Positions 4,297-14,940 of a stretch of DNA of 64,000 nt are shown piece after piece. The DNA comes from an uncultured euryarchaeote (GTDB lineage: Archaea > Thermoplasmatota > Poseidoniia > Poseidoniales > Poseidoniaceae): contig CALBRH010000060.1 in NCBI GenBank assembly GCA_937899865.1, forward strand, positions 1-64,000, written 5' to 3'. The notes beneath the pieces were generated by a model that saw nothing but the letters and a program-made list of their open reading frames with translations, ran no database searches and was not told the origin of the DNA. How positions within the stretch are numbered: position 1 is the first letter of the stretch; the number at the start of each line of letters is the position of its first letter. The position numbers were made by a program, and so were the translations under genes.

Positions 4297-5412
4297 TCAA
4301 CCAAATCTTCCTGAAATATACCTCGCAGTCAATTCTTTTGAGGGGTCACCAAAGATTTTCGAGGTCTTGTCAAACTCAACTAGTCTACCTAGGTACATGA
4401 AACCGGTATAGTCACTCACACGTTGAGCTTGACTCATAGAATGAGTAACAATTACCACTGTGAAATGTTTTTTCAGTTCTAAAATTAATTCTTCAATTTT
4501 TGCGGTAGCAATAGGATCTAATGCTGAACAAGGTTCGTCCATAAGAATCACTTCAGGTTCAACTGCAATTGTTCTAGCAATACAAAGTCGTTGTTGTTGT
4601 CCGCCAGATAGACTGGTTCCCAACTCGTGAAGTCGGTCGTTTACTTCGTCCCAAATTGCCGCCCGTCGCAACGACTCTTCGACTATTTTATCCAACTCCC
4701 TCCTACTTGGAGTGTAGTGAAGTCTAACGCCGTATGCGACGTTATCGTAAATTGATTTAGGGAATGGGTTTGGCTTTTGAAATACCATACCAACTCTTCG
4801 TCGGATAGTAACCAAATCTGCACCGCGCCCCATTATTTCCTCGCCGTCGAGTTCGATTGAACCATCCACTTTACAAATAGGGATTAGATCATTCATTCGG
4901 TTTAAACAACGCAATAAAGTAGACTTACCGCAACCTGAAGGACCGATTAAAGCTGTCACTGAGTTACGTTTGAATGGGATGGATACATTGTAAATCGCTT
5001 GGGCGTTACCATAGTGTAAATCCAAGTCCCGAATCCACATATGAGCATCGCCATCGATTTCTAAATCTCTGGTTGAATCTGGTATTTCTTCATGGATATC
5101 TGAATCATTGCTAATTTCATCCGGTAATGATGCTAAATATTCTTTGATGATTGTAGATTCCTCAAGATCTGCTTTGCCATCAACCTTAGACATTGAAGTT
5201 AAGATACCTCTGATTTGAGATTTTTTGGGCTGTTCCGAATCGCTAGAAAGCAGTTGTTTTAGTTGATCGAATAGTTGTTCCTCCTCGTCAGAAATTTCCC
5301 CGTCGGCCGCCATCAGCTCTTGCAGTGTCTCAAGTAAAGACTCGTGGGTATCACTAACCTCAGTCTCTTCAACGACTTCTTCATCTTCTGTTTTTTCTTG
5401 TTTTTTCGTCAT
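4297..5412 (-). CDS. pstB: Phosphate ABC transporter ATPase PstB with a ~120-aa acidic TerB-like N-terminal extension
   Basis: Walker [65 protein letters not shown]-terminus. Confidence 0.95.
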
Positions 5413-8400
5413 GTGCTTGAATACCTCCTAAAGTGTGCACGGAGTAAAATTGCTGCTGAGTTAACAATAACTAAAGTACCTAACAACACGATTGAAGCAC
5501 CAGCAGCTGCGACCTTAAAGCCTATTTTTGGCATATCTGTCCAGCGATATACTTGAACTGGTAATACGGTGTAAAATCCTCTATCATTAGAGTCTGGCCC
5601 GACATATTCTGCCGGATCTGCAGACATTGGGCCTCGGTCAGCCCATAATGGAATGTTTTGCAAGTGAGGCTCAATACCAGGGAACCAACTAGCAAATCCA
5701 TCTAACGATGGAGTATACTGATATGATACGTAAAAGAATGCGTCTGGTTCAGTAAATACTGAAGCAACTGCACCAACTAGGATAAGAGGCGCTGCCTCTC
5801 CCATAATTCGTGACATGGCTAAAATGGTCCCAGTCATCATACCAGGCATTGCGTGTGGCAATACGTGGTCTTTAGTCACCTGCCATTTGGTACAGCCTAA
5901 ACCAAATGCTGCATTTCGTAACGATGGTGGAACTGCCCTGAGTGCCTCTTGTGAAGAGATTACAATCGTAGGCATTGCCATCGTTGCCATTGTCATACCA
6001 GCGGTCATCACGGTTCCTCCTAACCCTAGACCAATTCCTCTATCAGTCAAAAAGAGGGCTAATCCAAATAACCCGAATACAATCGCTGGAACTCCAGCAA
6101 GGTTAGTAATGAGAGCTTGAATTCCTCTTCTGAACGAATTATTTGGCGCATACTCTTCTAGCCAAATTGCTGCGCCAATTGAAAGAGGAATAGCAAACAA
6201 CATCGTGTATCCAACAACATAGACGCTACCCCAAAATGCCGCCCTTAAACCCGCTTTATACGGTTCTGAGGACGTGTAGTCTGACCATACAAATGGAATG
6301 TGAATATTCATTGGAATGGTAAACAATGCTATCACCATGACCACTAGTGCTGCGGTCATCCATCCGTCTCGCCCCTTGATTACTAATCCTAATCGATCTT
6401 CCTGAATCTTGTTGGTTCTAGTCAATTGTAGTGCTGCAATTACCAACTTTTTAGCCCCGACAAATGACATCAATAATAGAACCGCCCCTACAACCCATCC
6501 TTCGATTAAAATCCATGAAAGGGCAATATACCAGACGATTACGTTCAACACCAACACCCCGAAATCTACCAGCCCGTCTGCTAAAGGAACATTTTCATCA
6601 GGACGCATCTTAATAATATCTGAAATTGCAGTGATTAGGGCGATGAAGCTCATCAAGGATACCGCACCACCAATTGTGAATGAGAACGGGACCAATAATA
6701 CTGGTTGGTTTTCATTAAATGTACTAATGAAAATTAACAATGCTCCGATGAAGATAAGTAACCTAATTAGAACACCAAATAATCTGCTTAATACTTCTGA
6801 AGAAAATGATAACCACGACCATGGTGTTTTCGTTCCAGTATCGAGTTCCTTTGAGCCTATTTTAATGAGTCCTGAACGTAGGGATAGCAGAACTCTATTT
6901 GGATATCTGACGACAAAAAACATCCCGATCAATCCCAGGTAAGCAAACATCGGCAGATAAGGGTCTCGTTCTTCATACATATCCAAGCCACTCTCAAGTC
7001 GATTTGAGGCTCCGCAATATTGCAGCCATGATAACTGGTCAAGATATCTGATTGTATCACACCATTCTTCGGAGTCCATTATTTGATTTGATACTAAAGT
7101 AGTGGCTTTATCGCAGTCAAAGTCTGCATATTGAGGGTCATTTTGTTTGTATGATTCTGAACATTTTATAGAATATAGGTCTGAAGTAATTTGCCAAACC
7201 ACAGGTATTGAAGAAATATTGGTTTTAGAATAATTAAACAATTTTCCTGCAGAAATCCCTTGCCCTTGAACCAAGTTAGCAATACCGTCTCCGTCTATGT
7301 CTCTGTCTTTTACTTCATCATGAACTCCATCGCCATCTGCATCGTTTACTGATATCCATTCACCTATTGACATTGGTTGGCCGCCGAACTCATATCGGCC
7401 AACCTCTGGACAATATTTTGGATGGCCGATTATTGGATTTTCGTCATTATCGCCATCAATATCAAGATCACAAACATCGATTGTTCCATCATTATCCAAA
7501 TCATCATCATCAATAAATCGGAATTGGAACCAATCTGCGGGAGAGCCGAGAGCAAAATCGCCGATCTCTCTGTATGAGGTTTCTAGAGCGTCATTAGCAG
7601 GACCTGATGTTTGAGAATAGGTAACAGTGTAATTCATTGTATGGTTGATATATAGCCAGTTTGTAGTTACCCCTCCTGACGGTTTTAGGGTTATATGTGA
7701 GTCTCTCTCAAAGTAATTCCATTCGCCTAAAAAGCCATTTGATAATGAAGGGGCAGCAATTCGGCTAGATGTGCTGAAATATGGGCCTGTTGGGTCATCC
7801 ACTAGGTTGACATACACTACATCGTGGCCTGTATTAGAAATAGTTACTCGGAATTCAGTTGACCGGGTTTTGGTAAAAATTGATGGTTGGATTTCATAGC
7901 CATCATCGTTTTTGAATTCTCCTACTACTGCCTCACCAGTCAAACCTGCCGATAGGATGTATGCTGATGTTTCAGCCTTAGTACAGAATTCTGGGGTAAA
8001 CGTTCCAATGAATTCTTGGGGCCGTAATATCTGTTCTGGAATTTGTTCCACATTTAGTGGGCGCCATTCTCTATCTGTTTGATTGTAAATCGAAGCAACT
8101 GTTATTTCTGAAAATTCGCCTATTCCAATTGCGCTTCTGTTGAGCCAAATATCCCCATCGCCGCGGAAAATTGGCGTTACTGGTGTATAATGTAGCCATA
8201 ATTTACCATCTTTGAAAGCGTGCGGGTAATCATCTGAAAAGTCTAGTACGCTGTTCAAGAATTCGTCGCCCTCTGCGGAATCCCAGCGTAGGCCTTTCCA
8301 TACCCATTGGCTTCCATCATCTGAATCGACCCAATAATCTCCCATCCCAGGAGTAGGTGCTTCTGGCCGCTTGAAGATGTTGATTCGCTCTTCTTCTCCG

Positions 8401-9101
8401 GTGCTGTATTCCTTAGTATCTTGACTAATTCCGGGCAATATATCCAGAACCTTCCATGGCTCAACAGGTTTGTAAGTATACTCTGCTAAGTCCTCATTAC
8501 AAAGCGCCCGCTCTAAGTCAGTGTCTAGATCCCATACAGATTGCCCATCTATGCTGGTGAATATATCTGTATCATTTTCTATACCAGTGAAAGCACCGTT
8601 AGAGAGTATTGGACTTGGGTTGTAATTGTCTCGAGTTGCAACATAGTGAGTCTCTTCCCATTTTGCCTCTATAGTGATATTCGACCGATCAATGCGCAAG
8701 TCTGCATCAAAGTATTCAACTGTTGCATCGCTAGGTACTGACAAACCAGACGGTATTTGGTCGGTTCTGTACTCTACTGTATTACCAGAACTATCTGACC
8801 ATCTTGTTATGCTGTATGCTTCCCAAGAAGGATTCCAACTTTCCGCTTTCCAAGAGAGTTGTGTTTGGGCAACTGGTTTACTGCCTTCTCTTATCCCATC
8901 AACTTCAATTTCTTGTTCAGGAACAAATGCCTCCTCTGTGATTTGTGTCAATAGAGTAACAAGAGCTAAACCGCAAACTAAAGCAATTGAAATAAACACG
9001 GATTTGCCAATTTTAGCGGTTGCATAACGGCGCTTTAGGGAGCGTTGTGGAAGCAGGGATGTGCCAAAAAGGCCATTGTAATCGCTCGGTCGTTCTTTCA
9101 A
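5409..9101 (-). CDS. pstA: Phosphate ABC transporter permease PstA, giant (1230 aa) with a large ectodomain and extra TM helices
   Basis: C-terminal core [58 protein letters not shown]; ATGA overlaps with pstC and pstB. Confidence 0.9.
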
Positions 9102-11557
9102 TCGTATTCCTCCCTAAAACGAGTCATTATCTTGTGTCCGACCATGTTTAATGATAATGTAATGACGAATAGGTATAATCCTACTGCGAATAATGAATAA
9201 TATGGTGTCGTACCAATCGGTAATTCGCCCCCGATTCGTTGAGCAATATATGCAGTCATTGTTTGAGCAGACCTAAACATGTTATCTGAGTAAACAGCTA
9301 ATGTCCCCACAGACAATGTCACGGCCATCGTCTCACCTATTGCTCTTGATAAAGCGAGAATAATTGATGCCAATATACCAGAGAGAGCTGATGGAATTGT
9401 TACCCTTGCCGTTGTTTCGGTGGGTGTTGCACCTAGAGCATAAGACGCCTGTCTCAAATTGTCTGGCACCGCTCTCAAAGCATCTTCAGATAATGAAGCA
9501 ATCAGGGGAGTAATCATTATTCCCACTACAATTGCTCCGTTTAGAGGATTGAATAGTTGGGGTTCTTGCGAAATCCACCCACGTTCAAGAAATGATGTGC
9601 CTATGTCAACCACTATTGGAGCGATGACTACGAAAGCAAAAAACCCGTAAACTACTGAGGGGATGCCTGCTAATAGTTCAAGGATCGGTTTGACAATGTT
9701 TGCAACTCTAGGGCTGGCATATTCTGACAAAAATATGGCTGTCCCAAGTCCTACGGGAATGGCTATAACCAATGCGCCTAATGCAACTTGCAAAGTTGTT
9801 TGCAGCAATGAATTTACCCCCATATGGAGGTTGGAATCTACAGTTACTAGGCCAACTGTTGTTATGTCTGTCTTCCACCATGTTTGCGTGAAAAATTCTC
9901 CTAGTGAACCATTGACTCGAGCAACTACATCCAAATACATCAACAGAATAGTTACTATCACTGCAATATTCATTGCTAGTCTACTATCTGAGTCAACGAT
10001 TGCAAACTTGTTACTACCGGATTGATTCCTAGAGTCATTGATTACTTTGGTAAACATTAACACTGCTACGCAAAGCGCAATGGTATGCCCTATTTGAATG
10101 AAATAAAAGTTTGTGAATGAGATGATAAGTGAGAATATCCCTAGAGTTAAAGTGGAATAGGGTAACTTTCCATCTAATTTCCAGCCAAAAAATGTCAATA
10201 TGAAGCTTAATGCAGAGACTAAAAGAATGATTGACAAACTAGGTGGAACTAACATAGACATGGTACTTATAGTTGCCAAAAATGCAAAATTTGTTCTTAA
10301 TACTGGCACTATCAAGTCTATTCGTTCAACTGGGATATTAACTAACCAGCGAGGAGAAAAAATTGTTAGTCCTACGACAAGGATGGTGATTACTCCTAAC
10401 AACAGACCAAAGTAATCTCTATCGGGAGTGTATGGGTTTGGATCGTAAGCATTGGGCAATCCATCACTGTCGATATCTTCGTCAATATTATTTGTTATAC
10501 CATCGCCATCGATATCATTATCCAGAAGTTTACCTGCTCCGTCAACTTGCTCATTTGCTACACCATCATTATCGTAATCAAACGGCAAATCCTTGATGTC
10601 CAGCTCCCTCAAATTATCCAGTAAGTCTTGATGTGAATTATTACCGCCTGTTGTGAAATCGGAGGTAAAAATGTACGAAGTCACCTCGTTTGAAAAATTA
10701 TATGATGCTGAACTAAAACGTGAAATTGATTCTCCTTGATAATCAAAAAATGAATACTGTTCAATGGTGAAACATCCGTTACTAGATTTCTCCACACCGC
10801 GGGTAACAAATTCATCCTCGAGTTGTTGGAGTATTGGTTGCCCTTCGTTATGGCATAACGTTACTTGATTGATATTTATTTCATCGTTCTTGTTGTATTC
10901 GGTGTTATTTTCATAATAAGGCAGCAGCACTTGATAATCTTCCATACTAAGTCTCGCACTATCATCACCAACCCAAACCGTCACCCACCATTCACGGGCA
11001 AGTTCAGGGTCTTGTTTGTGTAATATCAGAGCATTTTCATTATCTGCTATGTATTGTAATGGTATTTTTGGATACTCGTCATCCCAATGTTCCGGGTTTT
11101 GATCAAAGTATTCTGATAAATATGAACGATCTGAATCTAATCTTGGTCCAACGATTATTGTCCCATCAGCAAGTTGAAAAGCACTGCCTTCTCTATCGCT
11201 ATCGTCTGTATAGGTTTCGCTACTAGGGTCCCAACCGTAGGTATCTATCATTGGGTCTGATAGAACGACCATGTGTTCCATATCCCAATCAACTATACAA
11301 AAAGAATCAAGCCACAAAGGATCAGATATTTTCCCATCATCATATATCGCAGCATCTTTGATACTTGCTTTCAAATCTTCATCCCAATCCTGAGGCGGGG
11401 TGAACGAATCGGCACCGCAAGCAAACCCTCGATAGAATTTCGAACCGGATTCAAATAATACGAATACAATACCGGCAGTGATCATTACCACGGTAGCAGC
11501 AAGGGCAAATAGGACAATTCCTGGAGCGCTTTCTTCTATCCTGCCTCGCCAACGCAT
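9098..11557 (-). CDS. pstC: Phosphate ABC transporter permease PstC, enlarged (819 aa) with an ectodomain and extra TM helices
   Basis: Core IAIPVGLGTAIFLSEYA..ILELLAGIPSVVYGFFA..SEDALRAVP..SRAIGETMAV..SLFAVGLYLF. Confidence 0.92.
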   Translation of the reverse strand: MRWRGRIEESAPGIVLFALAATVVMITAGIVFVLFESGSKFYRGFACGADSFTPPQDWDEDLKASIKDAAIYDDGKISDPLWLDSFCIVDWDMEHMVVLSDPMIDTYGWDPSSETYTDDSDREGSAFQLADGTIIVGPRLDSDRSYLSEYFDQNPEHWDDEYPKIPLQYIADNENALILHKQDPELAREWWVTVWVGDDSARLSMEDYQVLLPYYENNTEYNKNDEININQVTLCHNEGQPILQQLEDEFVTRGVEKSSNGCFTIEQYSFFDYQGESISRFSSASYNFSNEVTSYIFTSDFTTGGNNSHQDLLDNLRELDIKDLPFDYDNDGVANEQVDGAGKLLDNDIDGDGITNNIDEDIDSDGLPNAYDPNPYTPDRDYFGLLLGVITILVVGLTIFSPRWLVNIPVERIDLIVPVLRTNFAFLATISTMSMLVPPSLSIILLVSALSFILTFFGWKLDGKLPYSTLTLGIFSLIISFTNFYFIQIGHTIALCVAVLMFTKVINDSRNQSGSNKFAIVDSDSRLAMNIAVIVTILLMYLDVVARVNGSLGEFFTQTWWKTDITTVGLVTVDSNLHMGVNSLLQTTLQVALGALVIAIPVGLGTAIFLSEYASPRVANIVKPILELLAGIPSVVYGFFAFVVIAPIVVDIGTSFLERGWISQEPQLFNPLNGAIVVGIMITPLIASLSEDALRAVPDNLRQASYALGATPTETTARVTIPSALSGILASIILALSRAIGETMAVTLSVGTLAVYSDNMFRSAQTMTAYIAQRIGGELPIGTTPYYSLFAVGLYLFVITLSLNMVGHKIMTRFREEYD

Positions 11558-11630
11558 GATTCATCCTCCAACATCCTGCGTTGTGTTGTGATGTCGTAAT
11601 GCTATCGGACTCTTTTATGTTCCTAAATAA

Positions 11631-11650
11631 ACTATATATTGCTATATAGT
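11631..11650. promoter_or_regulatory. Palindrome ACTATATA-TTGC-TATATAGT upstream of pstC (candidate operator or internal promoter)
   Basis: Perfect 8-4-8 inverted repeat in the pstS-pstC spacer; the same CTATAT/ATATAG core occurs in the other island spacers. Confidence 0.4.
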
Positions 11651-11656
11651 TGGGCC

Positions 11657-11687
11657 AAGTGGGAGGGGATTGCTCCCCTCCACACTT
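11657..11687 (-). terminator. Hairpin downstream of pstS (partial terminator or mRNA stabiliser)
   Basis: 8-bp GGAGGGGA/TCCCCTCC stem plus an AAGTG/CACTT extension; the loop reads GCAA (GNRA) on the - strand; ~30 nt after the pstS stop. Confidence 0.55.
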
Positions 11688-11715
11688 AGTTCGGAGGGTT
11701 TATGTTAGATATCAC

Positions 11716-14700
11716 TCAGCTAAAGTCGCCTTCAGCGGAAATTCTGCGCCACATCTCTTGCCATGTTGCGTCATCTAGTGGAACGTATCCTACTTCAGAA
11801 ATCTCAGCGGTTCCGTCTCCTGAGTAAGCCCAGGTTAGGAAAGCCGAAACTTCGTCCCAAACATCGTTGTTGACATTCATGAATAGTGGCCTAGATAGTG
11901 GTGCATATGATCCGTCTCTTACTGTGCCTGCATCTGGTATTACTGCAGTTTCGGTGGTGTCGCCCATACCATATACATGGTCGTTAGCAACGCCTGCGGC
12001 CGATAGAGTTGCTTGGTTTTCCGCATAGTATGCGAAGCCAAAGTAACCGATAGCAGTATCATCACCGTTTAGAGTGTTTACCAGTACATTGTCGTCAGAA
12101 GATTGAGTTCCTGCTCTGAATCCTTGGGATGCTTCGTCAAGTATTGACTCAAAGAAGTATTCGTAGGTGCCAGACGCTGCGTCTGGATAAGCAAGAACAA
12201 TTTCTGCGTCTGGACAGTTTGCGTTTAGCTCAGACCACTTATGGGTGCTGTCATCGTTGTCTCCGTTTGGTGTTACCGATGACATGTCAAGGCCTGCTGT
12301 AGTCAATTCTGCTGCAGTTTCAGCAGAGAAGATCCAGCGCAGTTGCGCAACTGTAAGTCCACCCATTTGTTGAATACACATATCAGCTGCGCCGCCTTTC
12401 TTGGTAACCACGGACAAACCGTCAACAGCAACTACAAGTTGGGTTACAGTGATTGAAGTGTCACCAACTGCGCACTCAACTTGTCCGTTTGCGTCAACGC
12501 CATCTTGTGTCTCTGTGGCCTTCCAGTCCCTAGACATGTCTCCAATGTCTACTTGGGAGCCCTTTGCTGAGTTAGCACAAACTCTACCTGCACCTGAGGA
12601 TGACCCACCGGATTCTACAGTGATTGTTGTATCGCCACAAATTTCGGTGTACGCTTCAGCCCAGGCTTCTGCAAGTGGTAGAACCGTTGAGGAACCTGCG
12701 ATTGAGATGCTTTGTGCGCCGCTACAGAATGCGTCGTCAAAGATATCTGAATTGCCGCCTGCGGTCATTCCCTTCAAGTATGCATATCTGCTGAGGAACA
12801 TCTGAGCTTCTTGGTTGTCGTTTAGGCTAACATATCCTACTTCTCCAACCTTGTCTTGGCCCATTTCAGTGAACAGTCCATACGCCATGAATGGTAGCGT
12901 GTTTTCAAGTGAAGCTGCATCGATTAGCAGATTCATAAACAGAGGTCTGGATAATGGGTTGTAAGAGCCGTCTCTAACTGTTGTTGCATCAGGAGCAACC
13001 ATGTTACCTGCATCATTTTGAACTGGAGCAGCAGTTAGTGTTGCTAGGTTCTCTTGGTAGTAAGCGTAGCCAAAGTAACCGATTGCGGTCTCGTCACCAA
13101 TTAGCGCATTAACTAGAACGTTGTCGTCACTGGATTGTTGGCCGGATCTGAATCCTTGTTCTGCTTCGTGTAGAATTGCTTCAAAGAAGTATTCGTAGGT
13201 ACCGGATGCTGCATCTGGGTATGCCAGATTAATTTCGGCATCTGGACAGTTTGCGGATAGTTCAGACCACTTGTGGGTGCTGTCATCGCCGTCTGCATTC
13301 GGAGTTACAGTTGACATGTCTAAACCTGCTGCAACCAATTCTGCTGCAGTTTCTGCGGAGAACATCCAGCGTAGTTGGTCAGGAGTTAGACCGCCCATTC
13401 CGTTTACACAGGTTTCAGCAGCGCCGCCCTTCTTCATTACAACGGATAGCCCATCAATTGCAACTTGGAATTGGGCAACATCTCTGCTGCTGTCACCAAC
13501 TAAACAGTCAAGAACGAAACCGTTTGCTTGTCGGTTTGCTTCGGTTGCCTTCCAGTCTCTGGACATGTCGCCGATGTCTACTGGTGTACCCTTGGCAGAG
13601 TTTGCACAAACTCTGCCTGCACCGGAGGATGAACCGCCGGATTCTACTGTAATTGTAACATCGCTACACTCTTCGGTGTATTGTTCTGCCCATGCCTCAG
13701 CAAGTGGTAGAACAGTGGAGGAACCTGCGATGCTGATTGAGCCTGCTGGACCGCAGATTACTGGTTGTGTTCCTGCTAGTCTTGCTTCCATAGTTGCCTG
13801 AATATCGGCTGGAATCGGGACATATCCTACTGAATTAACTAGTAGGTCGCCACCGTCTCCAAGACCAAACTTGAGGAATGGTACTGTGTTTGCAAGCGAT
13901 GCATCTTCAACAAGTAGGTTCATGAACAGAGGTCTTGATAGTGGGTTGTAGGTTCCATCGGCAACTGTTGAGCCACTTGGAGCAACCATGTTACCTGCAT
14001 CGTTCTTTACTGCAGCTGCAGTCAGAGTTGCTAGGTTCTCTTGGTAGTAAGCATAGCCGAAGTATCCGATAGCGGTCTCATCACCAATTAGCGCATTAAC
14101 TAGAACGTTGTCGTCACTGGATTGTTGTCCGGATCTGAATCCTTGCTCTGCTTCGTGTAGAATTGCTTCAAAGAAATACTCGTAAGTACCTGATGCTGCA
14201 TCTGGATATGCTAGATTAATTGCTGCGGATGGGCAATCGGAGGAGAGTTCACTCCATAGATGGGTTGAGTCATCATTATCACCGTTAGGAGTAACTGTAG
14301 ACATATCAAGGCCGGCAGCAGTTAGTTCGGCTGCAGTTTCTGCGGAGAACATCCAGCGTAGTTGGTCAGGGGTTAGACCGCCCATTCCGTTTACACAGGT
14401 TTCAGCAGCGCCACCTTTCTTCATAACGACTGAAAGGCCATCAAACGCAACTACGATTTGTCTTGCACTTCTTGAAGTGTCTCCAACTAGACAATCCATA
14501 GTGTAACCATCTTCGTCAATGGTTCTCTCGGTGTCTTTCCAATCCCTGGACATGTCACCAATGTCTACTGGTGTACCCTTAGCAGAGTTTGCACAAACTC
14601 TGCCTGCACCGGAGGATGATCCTCCAGATTCGACTGTGATGGTAACTCCCTCACAAGCCTCTGTGTAATATTCTGCCCATGCTTCTGCAAGAGGTAGAAC

Positions 14701-14940
14701 GGTAGATGACCCAGCGATGCTAATTGAGCCATCTGGGCCACAGACTACTGTTCCGACGTCAATTGTGTCGTCGGGTACAGTTTCATTTACAGTAGAATTA
14801 GTGCCGTCCCCTGGGGTAGTGACGGTGTCTGTGTTGTCGTCTTTATCATCGTCATCATTTCCTAGACATCCAGCCATGGCTGAGACCATCATAAGTAAGA
14901 TCAGTGTTATTGCTTTCATTTTGGTGCTTTGAGTTATCAT
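11716..14940 (-). CDS. pstS: Phosphate-binding lipoprotein with three tandem PstS domains
   Basis: Lipobox AMAGCLG; three copies of SISIAGSSTVLPLAEAWAE..VESGGSSSGAG..DIGDMSRDWK..YPDAASGTYEYF..IGYFG..YNPLSRPLFM..VGYV. Confidence 0.93.
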   Translation of the reverse strand: MITQSTKMKAITLILLMMVSAMAGCLGNDDDDKDDNTDTVTTPGDGTNSTVNETVPDDTIDVGTVVCGPDGSISIAGSSTVLPLAEAWAEYYTEACEGVTITVESGGSSSGAGRVCANSAKGTPVDIGDMSRDWKDTERTIDEDGYTMDCLVGDTSRSARQIVVAFDGLSVVMKKGGAAETCVNGMGGLTPDQLRWMFSAETAAELTAAGLDMSTVTPNGDNDDSTHLWSELSSDCPSAAINLAYPDAASGTYEYFFEAILHEAEQGFRSGQQSSDDNVLVNALIGDETAIGYFGYAYYQENLATLTAAAVKNDAGNMVAPSGSTVADGTYNPLSRPLFMNLLVEDASLANTVPFLKFGLGDGGDLLVNSVGYVPIPADIQATMEARLAGTQPVICGPAGSISIAGSSTVLPLAEAWAEQYTEECSDVTITVESGGSSSGAGRVCANSAKGTPVDIGDMSRDWKATEANRQANGFVLDCLVGDSSRDVAQFQVAIDGLSVVMKKGGAAETCVNGMGGLTPDQLRWMFSAETAAELVAAGLDMSTVTPNADGDDSTHKWSELSANCPDAEINLAYPDAASGTYEYFFEAILHEAEQGFRSGQQSSDDNVLVNALIGDETAIGYFGYAYYQENLATLTAAPVQNDAGNMVAPDATTVRDGSYNPLSRPLFMNLLIDAASLENTLPFMAYGLFTEMGQDKVGEVGYVSLNDNQEAQMFLSRYAYLKGMTAGGNSDIFDDAFCSGAQSISIAGSSTVLPLAEAWAEAYTEICGDTTITVESGGSSSGAGRVCANSAKGSQVDIGDMSRDWKATETQDGVDANGQVECAVGDTSITVTQLVVAVDGLSVVTKKGGAADMCIQQMGGLTVAQLRWIFSAETAAELTTAGLDMSSVTPNGDNDDSTHKWSELNANCPDAEIVLAYPDAASGTYEYFFESILDEASQGFRAGTQSSDDNVLVNTLNGDDTAIGYFGFAYYAENQATLSAAGVANDHVYGMGDTTETAVIPDAGTVRDGSYAPLSRPLFMNVNNDVWDEVSAFLTWAYSGDGTAEISEVGYVPLDDATWQEMWRRISAEGDFS

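Follow-up and report, generated by a model that had tools for sequence, protein, structure and literature searches.

Type I ATP-binding cassette (ABC) importers are usually viewed as compact, with permeases having short outside loops. A precedent for a large outside domain that handles the binding protein is the P2 loop of MalF in the E. coli maltose importer, a periplasmic type I permease domain of about 180 amino acids (aa) clasping its binding protein. Poseidoniales (Marine Group II) are among the most abundant archaea of surface seawater, where phosphate is often limiting, and none has been cultured. Here we describe the Pst system carried by a DNA stretch from an uncultured member of this order, family Poseidoniaceae (contig CALBRH010000060.1 of assembly GCA_937899865.1, positions 1 to 64,000; 'the window' means this whole stretch of 64,000 nucleotides). 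Its permease PstA is 1230 aa long. With E. coli PstSCAB (PstA of 296 aa; cryo-EM entries 9k3s, 9k3x and 9k3y; PMC12976172), it shares the six-helix core, the coupling region EAL..VP..LR.AA..LG, the operon order and the P1 and P3 loops, whereas it adds 890 N-terminal residues (a helix, then an ectodomain of 660 aa, then five more helices) and an insert of 45-50 aa in P3. The differences from the E. coli system extend to a similarly enlarged PstC, a PstS with three domains in a single chain and an extended PstB. This giant Pst is monophyletic and all four of its components are enlarged together. Literature searches for a giant Pst of Marine Group II found no paper describing it, and public annotation labels the proteins of this family merely PstC or PstA.

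The last ~340 residues of the giant PstA are a standard PstA core doing the standard job. The first ~890 residues form an added module made of a signal-anchor helix, an ectodomain of about 660 aa and five helices, which restore the N-in topology of the core. The gene and the parts of its product are as follows.

5409..9101, minus strand: pstA, giant form, 1230 aa, TTG start (open frame, TIGR00974, TTGA/ATGA overlaps)
8946..9101, minus strand: basic cytoplasmic N-terminus and signal-anchor helix 34-52, residues 1-52 (hydropathy, conservation in alignment A1)
6966..8945, minus strand: acidic extracellular domain of ~660 aa, residues 53-712 (hydropathy, alignment, AlphaFold2)
8127..8390, minus strand: one clear and one degenerate copy of a tail-fibre-type repeat, residues 238-325 (consensus ..FYQ..APTAEG.GDLWIDTDDGNKLYRW.G..W)
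7434..7514, minus strand: first DxDxDG pair, residues 530-556, with invariant C544 (invariant columns D534 to P556)
7266..7343, minus strand: second DxDxDG pair, residues 587-612 (invariant columns D587 to N609)
7002..7250, minus strand: helical bundle adjoining the membrane, residues 618-700, with invariant Cys 647, 663, 681 and 696 (AlphaFold2 confidence 74-90, Cys in 15/15)
6426..6965, minus strand: five extra transmembrane (TM) helices returning the chain to the cytoplasmic side, residues 713-892 (alignment-averaged hydropathy)
5409..6425, minus strand: canonical six-helix PstA core, residues 893-1230 (TIGR00974, PF00528)
5592..5750, minus strand: conserved insert of the giant form, in the P3 loop that links core TM5 to TM6, residues 1118-1170 (gap against medium PstA)

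The uninterrupted 1230-aa frame reported for 5409-9101 by the first-pass annotation is real and lies on the minus strand; the plus strand across the same interval is full of stops and holds no open frame. The coupling to both neighbours, also reported there, consists of a TTGA overlap between the pstC stop and the pstA TTG start and of an ATGA overlap between the pstB ATG and the pstA stop. GGGAGG is located 7-8 nt upstream of the TTG, and we judge this start sound because only four codons precede it in the stop-to-stop frame and the conserved motif LFGT..LP.RSL.RRY directly follows it. In the core, TIGR00974 (PstA) matches residues 928-1225 on its profile positions 25-271 with 204 bits, the cut-off being 193.45, and PF00528 (BPD_transp_1) scores 64.5 bits. 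The six core helices run from TM1 (915-933) to TM6 (1202-1220), and the closest solved relative by family profile is E. coli PstA (entries 9k3x/9k3s, E 1.8e-18). Family membership together with operon context points to phosphate transport as the probable activity of the giant PstA.

Topology was predicted from hydropathy averaged over an alignment of 15 family members. It gives 12 TM helices, namely one N-terminal, five extra and six core. The early description of an N-terminal TM followed by an acidic, aromatic-rich region is borne out (helix 34-52, then a domain with 10.4% D, 7.6% E and a net charge of -71). Two of its figures needed adjustment: the large outside domain stands at ~660 aa (residues ~53-712) and not ~680, and the 'about six' additional helices after it are five (713-735, 774-792, 808-826, 848-866 and 870-888), six being reached only when helix 34-52 is counted. 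The last of the five can be aligned with the medium-form PstA described below. The number of added helices is even, therefore the core keeps its normal orientation. Residues preceding helix 1 are basic and the loops 742-770 and 889-914 are rich in Arg and Lys; because of the basic N-terminus, the helix parity and these loop charges, residues 53-712 are placed outside the cell, not in the cytoplasm. The eight invariant Cys, the invariant sequons, the charge of -71 and the DxDxDG loops all fit such a location.

How real and how widespread is this gene? The survey covered 121 genomes sampled from the order Poseidoniales and 301 from the phylum. PstA is present in 32 of the 121, and the giant design, with PstA frames of 1195-1403 aa and PstC frames of 700-838 aa, in 14 of them, distributed over both large families; among the 301 genomes of the phylum, the giant ectodomain was not found outside the order. 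Proteins with the same plan form 16 clusters of 894-1284 aa, all but one of them 1159-1284 aa long. At the DNA level, 13 runs from six studies contain 86% or more of the sampled words. Contigs of two runs from two studies, which are not the likely source of the genome, tile the whole gene and cross the pstC-pstA junction with neither joints nor indels. Metatranscriptome contigs (two runs of one study) cover, among others, 7921-8903, 8668-9127 and 5257-5514; they span parts of the ectodomain and both gene junctions, with DNA carry-over being possible. In the longest of them, 18 differences are listed, 13 of which affect third codon positions. The RNA contigs do not reach large parts of pstA, pstC and pstB, which is not evidence of absence.

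In comparison with the congener G034, the ratio of non-synonymous to synonymous rates (dN/dS) is lowest in the core (0.013) and reaches 0.07 in the extra helices and 0.076 in the ectodomain. Over the ectodomain, 94% identical between the two species, we counted 44.8 non-synonymous and 128.2 synonymous changes; its subregions range from 0.04 to 0.14, none exceeding 0.14. The pairs G000-G066 and G066-G014 were saturated at synonymous sites and unusable. These codon comparisons indicate that the ectodomain is under purifying selection.

Across the family, ectodomain identity falls to 29-52%, with Cys, Trp, Gly and Asp columns remaining invariant. The eight Cys are conserved in 15/15 sequences, as are the sequons N141 and N490, those at N340 and N321 being present in 13/15 and 11/15. 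AlphaFold2 models built with 18 family sequences reach a mean predicted local distance difference test (pLDDT) score of 68.8 over the whole ectodomain and 80.4 over residues 75-505. The ectodomain is composed of beta-rich subdomains, a hairpin repeat of tail-fibre type and four DxDxDG loops, with a disulfide-bonded helical bundle adjoining the membrane. The N-terminal part is beta-rich and variable, with genus-specific insertions at 104-140 and 159-176; residues 230-330 are a very confident stretch, the part up to ~500 resembles a beta-sandwich and the Asp-rich stretch 520-615 is poorly modelled. The two insertions (8690-8800 and 8574-8627, minus strand) occur only in the source genome and in the congener G034.

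Known families and folds give little by way of comparison. Pfam, NCBIfam and PHROGs hold no family matching the ectodomain, and a feature search of the ESM Atlas returned no usable match. Foldseek against the Protein Data Bank (PDB), run with the whole ectodomain and with residues 75-505, found no match at E 0.001 or better and none below 0.1. With VIA-align against 48,161 representatives, the highest Z was 4.8 in the helical bundle and 4.0 in the beta part, the listed structure matches being generic helical bundles, beta-sandwiches and zinc fingers. No known enzyme fold was matched by Foldseek, VIA-align, Pfam or PDB profile searches. A nuclease of the Serratia NucA type came up at E 0.3 over residues 91-192 and was rejected: Asn141 stands where its DRGH motif has the catalytic His, the alignment depends on a genus-specific insertion and is lost when the family profile is used, and Pfam has no such match. 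MalF P2 was absent from the structure matches, a missing match that does not exclude likeness. With no fold similarity detected, its resemblance to the present domain is an analogy only. P2 is also much smaller, lacks Ca loops and interrupts the core helices as an insertion.

One part of the ectodomain does have relatives elsewhere. An exhaustive HMMER search of 1.84 billion representatives with the PstA ectodomain as query retrieved the few full-length relatives and ~35 long proteins whose matches, often numerous per protein, are confined to residues 232-322. The latter carry T7 tail-fibre N-terminal, prophage tail, lambda J and Phage-tail_3 domains and match PHROG tail families. They are built of tandem units of ~42 residues with the consensus TADGKITTFYQATAPTAEGVGDLWIDTDDGNKLYRWSGSAWVEVQD. 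A hidden Markov model (HMM) of the repeat, built solely from 78 phage copies, was run against every frame of at least 60 aa in the source genome. PstA residues 238-276 score 30.8 bits (independent E-value 6e-8), the degenerate second copy at 298-321 only 5.2 bits, and no other frame of that set matched. Thus residues 238-276 fit a model made exclusively from the repeat of marine phage tail and tail-fibre proteins (PHROG 33754, 25191 and 21973; proteins P0022-P0063). The phage proteins hold up to 10 tandem copies, whereas PstA has one good and one degenerate copy, and these lie within a membrane transporter. A PstA relative of 1284 aa displays a further copy within an insertion. The repeat region is modelled with pLDDT above 90, its strand and hairpin geometry being confidently predicted, and tail fibres were weakly matched by Foldseek among viral models (lowest E 4.5e-4). 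A PDB sequence search with a phage repeat protein found no solved relative, and literature searches for the tail-fibre motif found nothing. Such a repeat inside a transporter of the host connects cellular surface proteins with viral ones in a way that is so far unexplained.

The two Asp-rich tracts pointed out by the first-pass annotation are present at residues 530-554 and 587-609. They comprise four DxDxDG loops, 534-539, 547-552 (D-I-D-G-D-N), 587-592 and 601-606, with invariant Asp and Gly columns, and this stretch is the best conserved of the ectodomain (59.8% mean identity). Their runs of DxDxDG..D, with Cys and Asn-Pro, show a spacing like that of thrombospondin type 3 repeats (TSP_3, PF02412). 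Unlike genuine members, the PstA tracts stay below the cut-off and comprise only four loops, whose Ca binding is predicted only: TSP_3 gives 13.7 bits (E 0.053) on residues 520-625 and 24.5 bits on the corresponding tract of PstC, for a cut-off of 25 bits, and a whole-protein Pfam scan of PstA had no TSP_3 match. In the AlphaFold2 models the loops have pLDDT below 50, as expected without an ion. The motif is a common one in this genome, with 411 occurrences in its long frames, 43 frames carrying at least two and one frame up to 28; thrombospondin genes are widespread in Poseidoniales (Rinke et al., PMC6461757). Because of the sub-threshold TSP_3 scores and of this stock use in large frames, the loops are read as ordinary Ca-stabilised structure: they would be structural Ca2+ sites of a protein exposed to seawater rather than ligand sites.

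The giant form is one of three Pst designs observed in the order. In the medium design (10 genomes), PstA frames have 580-676 aa and PstC frames 445-465 aa; in the fused one (seven genomes of one family), PstC and PstA share a single frame of ~623 aa. No sampled genome has two designs, and the same genera include species with the giant and species with the medium form. In a PstC-rooted maximum-likelihood tree of PstA cores, each design forms one clade (support 96/99 for giant, 84/93 for medium and 94/84 for fused); giant and medium cores are sister clades (93/81), and the PstC tree agrees. The medium system, as seen at locus L005, follows the same plan as the giant one, i.e. N-terminal helix, outside segment, extra helices and core, with 44% identity between the two PstA from the last extra helix to the end. 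The medium outside segment, however, has only ~150 aa, cannot be aligned with the giant one and contains neither DxDxDG loops nor tail-fibre repeat; the medium form also lacks the P3 insert and comes with a single-domain PstS and a normal PstB of 271 aa. As an example of the fused design, locus L006 of genome G027, from the other large family, encodes a 622-aa frame (6360-8228, plus strand) accompanied by normal PstS, PstB and PhoU. Three designs in one order, only about a quarter of whose sampled genomes have any Pst, offer a natural comparison of transporter design against the phosphorus regime of the ocean.

The further loop insert of about 50 aa proposed early on was recovered: it measures 45-50 aa, lies between core TM5 and TM6 (the P3 loop) and appears as a 45-residue gap against the medium-form PstA of a congener. 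Over this insert, members of the giant family are on average 69% identical to one another. The P3 loop of E. coli, together with P1, extends into the cleft of the docked PstS (PMC12976172).

The partner proteins are encoded on the minus strand in the order pstS-pstC-pstA-pstB.

11716..14940, minus strand: pstS lipoprotein, 1074 aa, three tandem phosphate-binding domains (three matches to PF12849, PBP_like_2)
9098..11557, minus strand: pstC, giant form, 819 aa, with a TM helix, an ectodomain of ~340 aa containing DxDxDG loops, extra helices and core (TIGR02138, family alignment A5)
4297..5412, minus strand: pstB, 371 aa, with an acidic N-terminal extension of ~120 aa seen only in giant-type operons

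All 14 genomes with a giant PstA also have a PstC frame of 700-838 aa. In the window, PstC is matched by TIGR02138 with 247 bits, and no variation is seen at Cys46, Cys86 or the DxDxDG loops adjoining helix 2. In 12 of the 14 giant genomes, two to four PstS domains stand in one frame adjoining the permease genes. Of the other two, G066 has a single PstS match at the start of a contig and G113 none, its pstC lying ~1.5 kb from a contig start. PstS is a single-domain protein of 333-406 aa in medium and fused operons. The N-terminal extension of PstB (5053-5412, the first 120 residues), on which Pfam gives a weak sub-threshold TerB-like match of 18 bits, was detected solely directly downstream of giant pstA, in seven of the 14 giant genomes, and in no medium- or fused-type genome, by a search with a single query. 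The one medium and one fused operon examined encode PstB proteins of 271 and 256 aa, respectively, neither of which has the extension.

What the added domains do is suggested by this company. Giant PstA co-occurs with tandem PstS and carries an insert in the loop that, in E. coli, enters the PstS cleft; because of this, we tentatively favour the view that the chain of PstS domains is organised at the pore by the ectodomains of both permeases, PstA and PstC, acting with the P3 insert. Under this proposal, the two ectodomains and the insert would form a Ca2+-stiffened, glycosylated structure above the pore, which would hold or guide the lipid-anchored PstS chain of two to four domains and present a loaded domain to the docking site; the outcome would be better capture and hand-over of phosphate at very low concentrations. 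The suggestion that the ectodomain scaffolds a trimeric PstS is thereby partly retained: tandem PstS and P3 insert give it circumstantial support, and the trimer itself falls, PstS being one chain with three domains. A bolder formulation, which we find doubtful, is that of an undescribed type of ABC importer equipped with its own harvesting apparatus outside the cell, in which a Ca2+-rigidified cage or mast made by the PstA and PstC ectodomains over the pore, sharing one module with tail fibres, organises two to four PstS domains on one lipid anchor while the P3 insert passes each of them to the docking site. It would be an adaptation to nanomolar phosphate, and the shared module might make the transporter a viral target or a decoy. 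Here the enlargement affects the two permeases, the binding protein and the ATPase alike, and selection maintains it. Should the ectodomains prove to organise several binding domains in a chain, they would represent a novel means of raising capture efficiency and a new design principle for binding-protein-dependent transport in cells devoid of outer membrane.

Several points weigh against a role in PstS handling. Contact of the PstA ectodomain with PstS or PstC is something that we infer. Co-occurrence inside one clade counts as a single evolutionary event and not as 14 separate ones. Transport as such does not require the large domain, since the medium form manages with one PstS and an ectodomain of ~150 aa. 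The fold of the ectodomain offers no functional clue (best PDB matches at Z 4.0-4.8), and nothing beyond the Asp loops can be aligned between the PstA and PstC ectodomains. Moreover, the ectodomain evolves about six times faster than the core, which fits an exposed surface structure of any function. Complex prediction for PstA 75-720 with PstC 40-385, using family alignments, scored 0.02 against a mark of 0.32 and carries no weight either way.

A different role at the cell surface seems unlikely on balance, though it comes closest to the one we favour: the PstA and PstC ectodomains could be envelope spacers or anchors, tying the transporter to the S-layer or glycocalyx or setting the width of the space beneath it, the repeat and Ca loops being adhesion modules that bind glycans or proteins and PstS handling being incidental. 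Phage tail fibres, where the repeat otherwise occurs, bind cell surfaces; DxDxDG and thrombospondin-type modules are common in the large frames of this genome, presumably surface proteins, and have been interpreted as adhesion modules in Poseidoniales (PMC6461757), which lends support to the same role here; and the ectodomain, with its lineage-specific insertions, changes faster than the core. However, an anchor gives no account of the tie to tandem PstS, P3 insert and extended PstB, no other transporter in the window has such a domain, and the tail-fibre repeat recurs in no other frame of the source genome. The first-pass annotation had instead pictured a surface antenna for Ca-phosphate or particles, that is an acidic Ca-binding ectodomain capturing Ca-phosphate, apatite-like particles or other mineral and colloidal phosphorus and feeding phosphate to the system. 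The charge of -71 and the four invariant DxDxDG loops, the best-conserved stretch, agree with it, and the limited occurrence of Pst in the order (32 of 121 genomes) would be consistent with a special phosphorus niche. Nothing supports it specifically: the loops are sub-threshold as TSP_3 and belong to a motif occurring 411 times in long frames, many of them unrelated, as expected of ordinary structural Ca sites; Pfam, structure and PDB profile searches found no phosphate-binding or phosphatase-like fold or family in the ectodomain; and phosphate binding is already supplied by the three PstS domains. We consider this antenna improbable.

The viral connection deserves the same scrutiny. The tail-fibre module might come from exchange with viruses, the ectodomain serving as virus receptor or, conversely, as decoy or shield over an essential transporter used as receptor. 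Residues 238-276 are significantly and specifically homologous to the phage tail repeat and unique in the genome, weak tail-fibre matches exist among viral models (E 4.5e-4 at best), and within the same genera some species have the giant and others the medium form, never both in a sampled genome. Set against this are the low dN/dS (0.04-0.14) throughout the ectodomain, with no diversifying selection seen at this resolution, the single good copy of the repeat, and the nature of the matched phage proteins, whose T7-, lambda-J- and prophage-tail domains are typical of bacterial phages and not of known archaeal viruses, so that a virus-related function appears very improbable to us. Finally, a gene from a metagenome-assembled genome of 65 contigs invites suspicion of an assembly chimera, or of a surface-protein gene fused to pstA by sequencing error. 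No support for such an artefact was found, and it is refuted for practical purposes by the recurrence of the architecture in 16 protein clusters and 14 genomes of two families, by contigs of independent studies that bridge the gene without joints or indels, and by purifying selection along the entire frame. The probability left over goes to roles that we have not thought of.

A few further observations concern the partner genes and their surroundings. The source genome (2.0 Mb, metagenome-assembled, 91% complete) contains a single PstA and a single Pst system according to a genome-wide TIGR00974 search, which covers that 91%. The PstC ectodomain exists in long and short versions, many relatives of 693-763 aa having no counterpart of a middle segment of ~125 residues (residues ~205-330). 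In pstS, contigs from three runs (two DNA libraries and one RNA library) join position 14773 back to 13776, with 19 other letters between, a span of about one PstS domain; this junction may reflect strains with different numbers of tandem PstS domains, or assembly ambiguity at the repeats. The spacer between pstS and pstC (11558-11715, minus strand) contains G+C-rich inverted repeats (CCCTCC...GGAGGG and GGAGGGGAGCAATCCCCTCCC) right behind the pstS stop, followed by ACTATATAGCAATATATAGT. These repeats could act as an attenuator or processing site setting pstS expression above that of pstCAB. RNA-library contigs are far deeper over pstS, contig depth being unable to rank genes. Next to the phosphate genes, the plus strand encodes at 672-2159 a protein that combines Asp- and Cys-rich modules with a signal peptide of archaeal class III (pilin type).

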